The notes under the pieces are model-generated. The model did not search any database. It saw only the letters and a list, made by a program, of their open reading frames with translations, and was not told where the DNA came from. The translations under genes were made by a program, and so were the position numbers. 64,000 bases of DNA from an uncultured Eubacterium sp. (lineage in GTDB: Bacteria; Bacillota; Clostridia; Lachnospirales; Lachnospiraceae). Positions 32,556 to 33,320 of the stretch are shown here, piece after piece (position 1 is the stretch's first letter; each line of letters begins with the position of its first letter). The stretch covers positions 63,087-127,086 of the forward strand of contig NZ_CALGRE010000045.1 in assembly GCF_937958975.1 (NCBI RefSeq), read 5' to 3'.

Positions 32556-32584
32556 TTGAATTATAAATGAAAATTTTATATAAT
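32556..32584 (+). promoter_or_regulatory. sigmaA-type promoter of sRNA 1
   Basis: TTGAAT (32556-32561), 17-nt spacer, TATAAT (32579-32584). Confidence 0.55.
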
Positions 32585-32590
32585 AAATTT

Positions 32591-32688
32591 AACAAGAGAA
32601 CCGAAAGCTAGATATGACCTAACTGTCGGTGGTGTTAATTACTACAAAGTAGTGCCTTATCCTACCAAGACGAGGGCACTACTTTTTG
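32591..32688 (+). ncRNA. putative antitoxin sRNA 1 (convergent, overlaps the 3' end of the toxin-1 ORF)
   Basis: The promoter above is followed ~90 nt later by an 11-bp terminator stem (32646-32656 / 32675-32685) and a T-run. No ORF. It overlaps the last codons of the opposite-strand peptide gene. Confidence 0.5.
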
Positions 32689-32765
32689 CGTGTCATGTTT
32701 AAAACAAGAGTGACAACAGCGCAAAGCATTATTACAAAAGTAAATAAATCACTAAATGTAATCAT
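32679..32765 (-). CDS. 28-aa hydrophobic peptide, putative type I toxin (MITFSDLFTFVIMLCAVVTLVLNMTRKK)
   Basis: ATG at 32765 lies 9 nt after AAGGGAG. One TM helix plus a basic RKK tail. Below the ORF-track size cutoff. A paralogue lies 331 bp away. Confidence 0.6.
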   Translation of the reverse strand: MITFSDLFTFVIMLCAVVTLVLNMTRKK

Positions 32766-32887
32766 AAGCATCAGCTCCCTTCATATGTATTTCCGGCAGC
32801 TAAGCAAATCGCCCCTTCGGTTCCCCGGGTAAGTTTACTATATTATCATGAATAAAATTTATAATAAGTCAGTATTTCCTTTTATTA

Positions 32888-32916
32888 TTGCAATTAATAA
32901 AAGAATTATATATAAT
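32888..32916 (+). promoter_or_regulatory. sigmaA-type promoter of sRNA 2
   Basis: TTGCAA (32888-32893), 17-nt spacer, TATAAT (32911-32916). Confidence 0.6.
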
Positions 32917-32922
32917 AGATTT

Positions 32923-33020
32923 AACAAGAGAACCGAAAGCTAGGTGTTAGCTAGCTTCTGGTTTGTAAAGAACTACAAAGTAGCACCTTTGTTTACCAGA
33001 CGGAGGGTGCTACTTTTTGT
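32923..33020 (+). ncRNA. putative antitoxin sRNA 2
   Basis: Same architecture as sRNA 1. The terminator stem (32977-32987 / 33006-33016) carries two compensatory base-pair changes relative to copy 1. Confidence 0.5.
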
Positions 33021-33096
33021 TTGTAAAGTGTAAAACAAGAGTAACAATAGCACAGAGCATGAGTATAAATGTAAAAAGCTCATTATATGTAACCAT
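33010..33096 (-). CDS. 28-aa hydrophobic peptide, putative type I toxin (MVTYNELFTFILMLCAIVTLVLHFTNKK)
   Basis: ATG at 33096 lies 9 nt after AAAGGAG. Colinear with the peptide at 32679..32765; differences are mostly conservative and the frame and length are preserved. Confidence 0.6.
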   Translation of the reverse strand: MVTYNELFTFILMLCAIVTLVLHFTNKK

Positions 33097-33320
33097 TGGC
33101 ATCACTCCTTTCATTAAAATTCAGAAGTCAGCCAGTGTCCCCTTCGGTTCCCTTGGTAGATTTATTATATTGATTTTATGGGATTAGTATAAGTATATTA
33201 ATATTAATAAATATATTCTAAAACACACATGATAAAAAATCAAGTAATGAAATTATTTATATTTTTAATAAAAATGTTTATTATAGTGCATAAAATGTAC
33301 AAAACGCTAAGAGGCAGGTC

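Follow-up and report, generated by a model that had tools for sequence, protein, structure and literature searches.

A 64,000-nucleotide (nt) stretch from an uncultured Eubacterium sp. of the Lachnospiraceae (contig NZ_CALGRE010000045.1; referred to below as the window) carries two tandem units within a 3-kb intervening element, and judging from these units and their relatives each of them is most likely a type I toxin-antitoxin (TA) module with a TxpA/RatA- and par-like architecture. The cassette is real, conserved and unannotated, and it lies outside every curated family. The evidence consists of the anatomy of the units, selection on both coding sequence and RNA structure, promoter asymmetry, sequestration of the Shine-Dalgarno (SD) site of the toxin messenger, and covariation between the 5' tail of a small RNA (sRNA) and the toxin open reading frame (ORF). 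Two hallmarks of type I TA loci, a hydrophobic peptide gene with an SD and a predicted gene for an antisense RNA with a promoter and terminator of its own, were found in silico. The type I interpretation had been put forward earlier from the letters of the window alone (the sequence-only reading), and its sequence-level predictions hold at related loci.

The two units, of ~331 bp each (32540-32871 and 32872-33200), lie in the gap between a large serine recombinase gene (31014..32477, minus strand) and a gene for a Spo0A C-terminal domain (Spo0A_C) protein (33562..33906, minus strand). They show 83% column identity in a pairwise alignment, repeats found by a repeat search are spaced 327-332 bp from start to start, and the 18-mer AACAAGAGAACCGAAAGC occurs twice against an expectation of 0.04. 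Each unit contains a minus-strand ORF of 28 amino acids (aa) and a predicted plus-strand RNA of ~97 nt from promoter to terminator. Toxin-like ORF 1 (MITFSDLFTFVIMLCAVVTLVLNMTRKK) is located at 32679..32765 and toxin-like ORF 2 (MVTYNELFTFILMLCAIVTLVLHFTNKK) at 33010..33096, both on the minus strand and both with the coding signature of the family described below; an SD stands ~8-9 nt 5' of each, GGGAG in the first copy (32775-32779) and AGGAG in the second (33105-33109). On the plus strand, the promoters TTGAAT-17-TATAAT (32556..32584) and TTGCAA-17-TATAAT (32888..32916) each match the consensus at 10/12 positions and are the two best promoter-like sites of the region. The putative antisense sRNA 1 (~97 nt, 32591..32687, with a start placed to within ~2 nt) begins with a 5' tail AACAAGAG (32591-32598), continues into a 5' hairpin at 32600-32630 and closes with a terminator hairpin at 32646-32685 and a T-run, and the putative antisense sRNA 2 (~96 nt, 32923..33018) has its tail at 32923-32930, its 5' hairpin at 32930-32964 and its terminator hairpin at 32977-33016. 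The terminator arms, AAAGTAGTGCC/GGCACTACTTT in the first copy and AAAGTAGCACC/GGTGCTACTTT in the second, form perfect 11-bp stems that differ from each other by two compensatory pairs (repeats I23/I24), and the last three codons of each ORF (Lys-Lys-stop) lie inside this stem, which is common to both strands. The sequence-only reading had described tandem units of ~332 bp without an annotated ORF, 28-aa minus-strand ORFs with ribosome-binding sites, plus-strand promoters, the compensatory stem pairs and an RNA of ~100 nt converging on the 3' end of the peptide gene, and this anatomy was recovered throughout, exactly at the positions given or displaced by a few bases, with predicted RNA 3' ends at 32687 and 33018. 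An identical TA region is present within the same 3-kb element in 13 metagenome contigs, where gene callers likewise left it empty.

Related loci were collected with a degenerate pattern on the common 5' motif, which matched 60 viral contigs, 52 of them encoding the peptide, and 74 stretches in reference genomes, overwhelmingly from Lachnospiraceae (Blautia, Roseburia, Eubacterium, Dorea, Enterocloster, Lachnospira, Oliverpabstia and others). Blautia hominis KB1, Suilimivivens aceti and Roseburia zhanii are among the carriers. A search seeded with the peptide, and hence independent of the RNA, returned at least 211 viral contigs. The pooled set comprises 195 copies in 184 loci, with 134 unique full modules. 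In protein databases the peptide is unnamed or 'hypothetical', apart from one UniRef entry named 'Holin-like toxin'; when both window peptides were concatenated as a query, 41 matches were obtained, none with a Pfam domain and with 'hypothetical protein' as the sole name. Searching the region by blastn in 'distant' mode against the phage and plasmid GenBank collections gave no match. Two 1,124-aa proteins (P0007, P0009) share a 90%-identity cluster with a 29-31-aa peptide, which is probably a clustering or gene-calling artefact.

The small ORF is, by its pattern of variation, a conserved protein-coding gene under purifying selection. Variation at codon positions 1, 2 and 3 of the family ORF alignment amounts to 0.126, 0.051 and 0.29, and codon differences across the family are synonymous in 368 cases and non-synonymous in 202. 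Among 94 unique ORFs, 78 are 28-29 aa long and 88 start with ATG, and an SD is present in 181/183 cases; the conservation of length and frame that had been noticed between the two window copies thus extends to the family. The consensus peptide reads MVTYsDLFtFVIMLCAVITLV, followed by a variable basic tail ending in KK, and contains one transmembrane segment. Codons 19-21 stand out in that the exact codon is kept at a frequency of 0.77-0.88, compared with 0.46-0.65 at other conserved residues. One copy that looks decayed (L028, 2095-2182) has a frameshift within the ORF, and among loci L068, L085 and L114 there are variants that have lost the stop codon in the terminator, so that the ORF extends to 41-42 aa (...KKQRPCPGKIRRYS).

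Selection is also visible on the structure of the plus-strand RNA. The two window sRNAs fold into a 5' hairpin and the terminator with z-scores of -3.7 and -4.4, and 0/200 shuffled sequences fold as well. Covariation was assessed on an alignment of 66 representatives at <=95% identity (alignment A3), for which RNAalifold recovers the same two hairpins as the single-sequence folds. The consensus has 22 pairs with 97.7% of cells paired; the sequence-only reading had proposed a covariance analysis of homologous loci, and here 14/22 pairs carry compensatory changes, a result matched by 0/500 shuffles, while controls with slid register reach 0.06-0.11 compared with 0.31 for the true alignment. In the 5' hairpin, 4/5 inner pairs are compensated. 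On this alignment the covariation of the 5' hairpin is specific to the sRNA; in the terminator it would suit folding of either strand. Of 134 modules, 80 have a perfect TTGACA-17-TATAAT as sRNA promoter and 128 match the consensus at 10/12 positions or more. Out of six positions each, the -35 and -10 boxes of the sRNA promoter match on average at 5.42 and 5.97, as opposed to 3.07 and 5.10 for the toxin promoter, which across the family combines a good -10 box (5.1/6) with a poor -35 box (3.1/6). The sRNA promoter is therefore predicted to be far stronger than that of the toxin, an asymmetry that is usual for type I TA loci.

The 5' part of the predicted toxin messenger is related to that of the sRNA, a relation that the sequence-only reading had missed, as it had the linkage to integrases discussed below. 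In both units the toxin -10 box and the first ~20 nt of the transcript are a copy of the sRNA -10 box and its first ~20 nt; the start pattern is TATAAT-AnATTT-AACAAGAGAACCGAAAG for the sRNA and TATArT-AAAyyT-ACCmrGGGAACCGAAGG for the toxin, and because one start copies the other, the 5' ends of the two RNAs are similar rather than complementary. A repeat search finds these copies as inverted repeats of 28-39 nt (I1, I2, I4) flanking each window unit. By homology with the sRNA start, the toxin 1 leader would run from ~32830 to the start codon (32766..32830, minus strand; repeat I2) behind a -10 box TATAGT at 32837..32842 (minus strand), itself assigned through homology with the sRNA -10 box and accompanied by a poor -35 box. 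It includes a segment X (32812-32826) and a candidate cis anti-SD GCUUAGCUGCCGG (32793-32805) in addition to the SD. The toxin 2 leader (33097..33157, minus strand; repeats I1/I4) follows a -10 box TATAAT at 33164..33169 (minus strand), assigned in the same way, and includes segment X at 33139-33152 and an anti-SD GGCUGACUUCUG at 33122-33133.

Folding predicts that the toxin leader sequesters its own SD site. In the minimum free energy (MFE) structures of the two window leaders, GCUUAGCUGCC pairs with GGGAGCUGAUGC in toxin 1 and GGCUGACUUCU with AGGAGUGAUGCC in toxin 2, in each case engaging the SD with an upstream segment, and in toxin 2 the pairing probability of the SD is 1.0. When representatives were folded one by one, the SD was paired with leader nt ~32 in the MFE structure of 55/65, with a pairing probability of 0.71 as compared with 0.46 for shuffled leaders. 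The anti-SD helix CAGCU:AGCUG is 94% paired and has 57 double-change cells. RNAalifold gave no consensus structure for the toxin leader alignment, because of indels.

Two contacts between the RNAs follow from this layout or are indicated by covariation. At the common terminator, the geometry itself entails ~45 nt of perfect complementarity. Apart from this overlap, the 8-mer AACAAGAG occurs both at the sRNA 5' ends (32591, 32923) and within the ORFs, where the minus-strand positions 32703..32710 and 33034..33041 (codons 19-21) read CUCUUGUU in the messenger and are complementary to the sRNA 5' tail. In order to look for conserved antiparallel helices without bias, we scanned a chimeric alignment of sRNA and toxin mRNA with 117 sequences, and the top intermolecular helix outside the overlap joins sRNA nt 2-8 (ACAAGAG) with toxin CUCUUGU at codons 19-21. 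This helix is 96% paired with double changes at three pairs. Examples of correlated change are A>G on both sides in L135 and L136, synonymous in the ORF, A>G together with Leu>Pro in L069, and a synonymous A>G in L206. Codons 19-21 are the best site for sRNA nt 1-10 in 60/66 representatives. The pairing of AACAAGAG with CUCUUGUU, which had been offered before as a weak observation, is thus the best-supported helix outside the overlap.

The toxin leader and the 5' domain of the sRNA are paralogous, one an inverted duplicate of the other, and they co-evolve. Segment X (+8 to +17; variants GAACCGAAAG, GAGCCAAACG, GAACCGTTGG, GAGCTGCTGG, CAGCCGGAAGG and others) and the 3' arm of the hairpin, Y (AGCCGCCGG, AGCTTCTGG, ATCTACTCCG, CTACCCGTYCCG, TAGCCACCT and others), differ between modules, yet they change together in the sRNA and the leader of one module. 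Compared across 12 X/Y classes, cognate pairs have an identity of 0.69, as against 0.46 for pairs that are not cognate (permutation p < 1e-4); in 9 of these classes the highest identity is with the cognate partner. The window units follow the same pattern: the sRNA reads CUGUCGG in unit 1 and CUUCUGG in unit 2, and the corresponding toxin leaders read CUGCCGG and CUUCUGA. A plausible explanation for this co-variation is that Y in the toxin leader acts as the cis anti-SD: both Y copies would then have to fit one SD region and therefore co-vary, and X would follow since it pairs with Y in the sRNA hairpin. A column-wise search for X_t:Y_t or X_s:Y_t helices found none above threshold. The co-varying positions +10, +14 and +15 are interleaved with fixed differences between sRNA and toxin (+2, +4, +7, +16 and +18 to +20), an arrangement that would count against simple gene conversion. 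Positions -6 and -5, upstream of the inferred transcription start, co-vary as well, so that a cause at the DNA level, such as patchy conversion or a shared operator, is possible. Tandem copies are also found in six other loci (L136 at 1501 and 2238, L085 at 3515 and 3856, L095, L124, L068, L072), and there the two usually belong to different X/Y classes; this would be compatible with selection for orthogonality.

The flanking inverted repeats of 28-39 nt and the tandem arrangement could also suggest a selfish inverted-repeat element similar to a miniature inverted-repeat transposable element, with promoter-like terminal repeats and an incidental ORF and RNA. We consider this very improbable: there are only two copies in 64 kb, copies elsewhere stand in one fixed genomic context and are not dispersed, the ORF has a coding pattern and the hairpins covary, and the fixed sRNA/toxin differences are interleaved within the repeat. 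This explanation was rejected on the copy number, the fixed context and the signals of coding and structure.

If each unit is a type I TA module, it might work as follows. A weak minus-strand promoter would give a toxin mRNA of ~190 nt in which an internal anti-SD of the leader (about nt 27-42) pairs with the SD region, keeping translation of the 28-aa peptide, a single transmembrane helix with a Lys-Lys tail, at a low level. A strong near-consensus plus-strand promoter would drive an RNA of ~97 nt that ends at the same hairpin, used as a bidirectional terminator, and that is fully complementary to the final ~45 nt of the toxin mRNA, including the codons for KK and the stop. The single-stranded 5' tail of this RNA, (A)ACAAGAG, would in addition pair with codons 19-21 (CUCUUGU), and the 3' arm of its 5' hairpin, which has the same sequence as the toxin anti-SD, may also touch the SD/AUG region. 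By analogy with RatA/txpA and par, the duplex would lead to cleavage of the RNase III type, to a translational block, or to both, and the peptide would be made only once the labile RNA is no longer supplied, for instance after loss of the element. It is from this analogy that we infer toxicity, lability of the RNA, the nuclease step and a role in stabilisation.

Several results weigh against the type I reading, and they concern the cognate specificity of the contact at the initiation region, known families and the minus-strand terminator. On the toxin mRNA, the hairpin 3' arm is predicted to pair best with the SD-AUG window in 36/66 representatives and with the leader X segment in 23/66, and RNAduplex energies for the 3' arm against the initiation region show no overall difference between cognate (-16.8) and non-cognate (-16.6) pairs. 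A cognate-specific contact is clear only in L085_3856 (-18.2 kcal/mol) and L097 (-16.7 kcal/mol); because the class matrix is diagonal for these two only, we treat the trans anti-SD contact as a candidate. In the window it is weak, with -6.5 and -8.5 kcal/mol for the own targets of copies 1 and 2 and -11.6 kcal/mol for sRNA 2 on toxin 1. The contact is thus not cognate-specific in most classes and is weak for copy 1. Among known families, the window peptides have no significant match in Pfam, NCBIfam or PHROGs, and they do not match Pfam Hol_Tox (PF16935; cut-off 23.3 bits) at E<=10; 6/15 relatives do match this model, the best at 17.1 bits (E = 0.005), below the cut-off. The likeness to Hol_Tox and Fst peptides that the sequence-only reading had suggested thus amounts only to sub-threshold Hol_Tox matches in relatives, and it does not extend to the window peptides or to the Fst-type model. 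Rfam returned only sub-threshold matches for 30500-35000 at E<=10, with none to RatA, SR4 or Fst RNA; BsrG reached 18.3 bits against a gathering score of 55, and ohsC 26.3 bits against 50 (E = 0.68), the latter through the terminator-like hairpin alone. Finally, the minus-strand U-tracts past the common hairpin are poor in both window copies (CUUUGUAGUAAUU, CUUUGUAGUUCUUU), and toxin transcripts may therefore read through. A T-run follows the hairpin on the plus strand, and most relatives also have an A-run upstream of it, so that it could terminate both RNAs; on the minus strand this feature is weak in the window copies.

A weak PHROG match to 'holin' (E = 0.06) and the sub-threshold Hol_Tox matches, together with a location almost exclusively in prophages, would also suit a non-toxic small membrane protein of prophages, of a holin/antiholin-like, superinfection-exclusion or abortive-infection kind, which is merely tuned by a cis-antisense RNA without any addiction. 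We regard this as quite improbable, given that a strong antisense and a weak sense promoter, a hidden SD, a common terminator and tandem duplication are the signature of type I TA loci (PMC2887945) and that the cassette is not found beside lysis genes.

The conserved neighbour of the cassette is an integrase. In 79/119 unique downstream contexts the next same-strand gene encodes one, a serine integrase in 41 and a tyrosine integrase in 38 (examples are L001, L015, L054 and L144, and in the window the recombinase at 31014-32477), and it often starts 196-450 nt past the toxin ATG, right behind the sRNA promoter. A promoter scan of 32478-32555 found no convincing promoter for the window recombinase. 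Given the nearby integrase, the lack of a visible recombinase promoter and the poor minus-strand U-tract of the window copies, it is conceivable that transcription runs on into the recombinase, which would then be open to antisense control. The same observations, and the fact that the linked integrases belong to two unrelated families, have led us to consider whether the cassette serves mainly for antisense control of an integrase transcribed by read-through from the toxin promoter or the cassette, with the peptide as a leader or upstream ORF. This is distinctly unlikely in our view, as the peptide sequence itself, with its transmembrane helix and basic tail, is under strong purifying selection, which is unexpected for a leader ORF; moreover, 40/119 contexts lack a downstream integrase, the upstream one of two tandem copies is not next to an integrase, and accessory genes commonly cluster at prophage ends anyway. 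Integrase control could also be a function added to that of a TA module instead of an alternative to it.

A broader scenario, which we offer tentatively and hold to be doubtful as a whole, is that the antitoxin RNA originated by inverted duplication of the toxin promoter and leader and has been kept in step with this leader, that the 3' arm of its hairpin acts as a trans copy of the cis anti-SD, and that X and Y set cognate specificity between copies residing in one element or genome. As the cassette lies immediately upstream of integrases, the sRNA may, in the same scenario, also be antisense to the integrase 5' region; if true, this would couple prophage integration and excision to toxin release.

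The element that carries the two window modules is 3,040 bp long (31006..34058) and is bounded by 13-bp direct repeats TGSACCACCTATG at 31006-31018 and 34046-34058, which read TGGACCACCTATG and TGCACCACCTATG at the element ends. It splits a LysM-GH18 gene into 30287..31027 and 34056..34469, and joining the halves restores ...GYTYGPPMAVAPINK...; the interrupted gene probably encodes a YaaH/SleL-like spore-cortex hydrolase. This design resembles, by analogy, that of skin-type elements excised during sporulation. Its protein genes lie on the minus strand in the order Spo0A_C protein, toxin 2, toxin 1 and the large serine recombinase, which was identified by the Pfam domains Resolvase, Recombinase and Zn_ribbon_recom and which synteny shows to be the conserved neighbour of the cassette; the recombinase lies directly downstream of toxin 1, with a stop codon that overlaps the repeat on the left. 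Besides the recombinase the element has one further gene of some size, that of the Spo0A_C protein (114 aa; PF08769, E = 1.4e-27), which stands alone with no receiver domain and is followed by a strong terminator (33500..33465). This protein could tie the element to sporulation control. A 46-aa acidic ORF (MHYIYHINEEERELTEDEWNQLAEVFFESAGYENSRQEKGSSEKRK, 33321..33461, plus strand) is annotated as a gene where the element occurs in other assemblies, and it has no Pfam match. Near the cassette at other loci, no homologue was found of either the Spo0A_C protein or this ORF. Directly downstream of the interrupted GH18 gene lies a gene for an N-acetylmuramoyl-L-alanine amidase (Amidase_3, 34531..35271, plus strand), suggesting a small cluster for remodelling of the cell wall or spore cortex.

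Type I TA systems have the reputation of being rare, or difficult to detect, in all but a few model taxa. According to PMC6563280, a survey from 2010 found almost none in Clostridia besides C. bolteae. Simple DNA signatures now define a large unannotated family in dominant gut commensals of humans and animals (Blautia, Roseburia, Dorea, Eubacterium, Lachnospira and others) and in the prophages of these bacteria. The family offers toxin/RNA pairs that have diverged naturally and may be orthogonal, and its putative antitoxin is clearly a paralogue of the leader of its target. The strict placement of the cassette upstream of integrases from two unrelated families points to a possible link between maintenance of the element and expression of the recombinase. 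In the window, the 3-kb skin-like element that interrupts a probable spore-cortex hydrolase gene contains hardly more than a recombinase, a Spo0A-C domain protein and two modules.

The geometry of the modules is covered by the T1TAdb account of Gram-positive families (PMC8594479), and the kind of system is therefore already known. The family itself, the paralogy of sRNA and leader and the linkage to integrases were not met for any other system in the papers and keyword searches consulted, none of which was aimed at antitoxin-leader paralogy. PMC2887945 and PMC6563280 note 'TxpA-like' peptides in Clostridiales, specifically in C. bolteae, and these may be relatives of the family.

In position, the modules resemble txpA/RatA of the B. 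subtilis skin element and bsrG/SR4 of SPbeta, where a convergent antisense RNA likewise covers the 3' end of the toxin messenger including the end of the ORF. An antisense RNA that overlaps the end of the ORF from the 3' side defines the RatA type (PMC8594479), and here the overlap takes in the last three codons. As here, txpA/RatA is located in a prophage-like element with a large serine recombinase, inserted into a sporulation gene, and with txpA and bsrH the skin element contains two modules (PMC6563280). The N-terminus of TxpA (MSTYESL) resembles the M-x-T-Y-x-x-L of the family, and TxpA scores 31.3 bits on Hol_Tox. However, TxpA has 59 aa, compared with 28-29 aa here, and hhalign aligned only eight N-terminal residues with a probability of 4%. 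Unlike txpA/RatA, the modules described here have an overlap of ~45 nt formed by a common terminator, a separate contact by the sRNA 5' tail, and an sRNA 5' domain that is paralogous to the toxin leader.

The par locus of E. faecalis pAD1 (fst RNA I/RNA II), whose architecture is summarised in PMC8594479, has in common with our modules the convergent RNAs with one bidirectional terminator, an extra complementarity from direct DNA repeats that are read in opposite directions, a 5' structure that sequesters the ribosome-binding site of the toxin mRNA, and a toxin of ~30 aa with a single transmembrane segment. In contrast to par, the direct repeat here targets codons 19-21 and not the initiation region, the end of the ORF is overlapped, the carriers are prophages and not plasmids, and the Pfam Fst-type toxin model gives no match, Hol_Tox being the one toxin family approached, below its cut-off. 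In SprA1/SprA1AS of S. aureus, a 3'-overlapping antisense RNA has a non-overlapping 5' domain that possibly meets the SD/start region in trans (PMC6563280, PMC6393315), a precedent for the contact that is predicted here, where cognate specificity is seen in two divergent lineages only.

The C. difficile systems CD0977.1-RCd11, CD1233.1-SQ808 and others are type I TAs of prophages and of a skin element excised during sporulation, and they have been shown to contribute to maintenance of the element (PMC7699646; PMC6563280). Their toxins of ~50 aa showed no sequence similarity to the peptides described here, and the organisation and the RNAs differ, as does the host group, which is Lachnospiraceae here. 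Silencing of txpA takes place by RNase III (PMC3531473), and type I TAs in the prophages and skin elements of B. subtilis and C. difficile have been proposed to stabilise them (PMC6563280; PMC7699646); by analogy with these systems, the two modules of the window might be an addiction cargo of their element.

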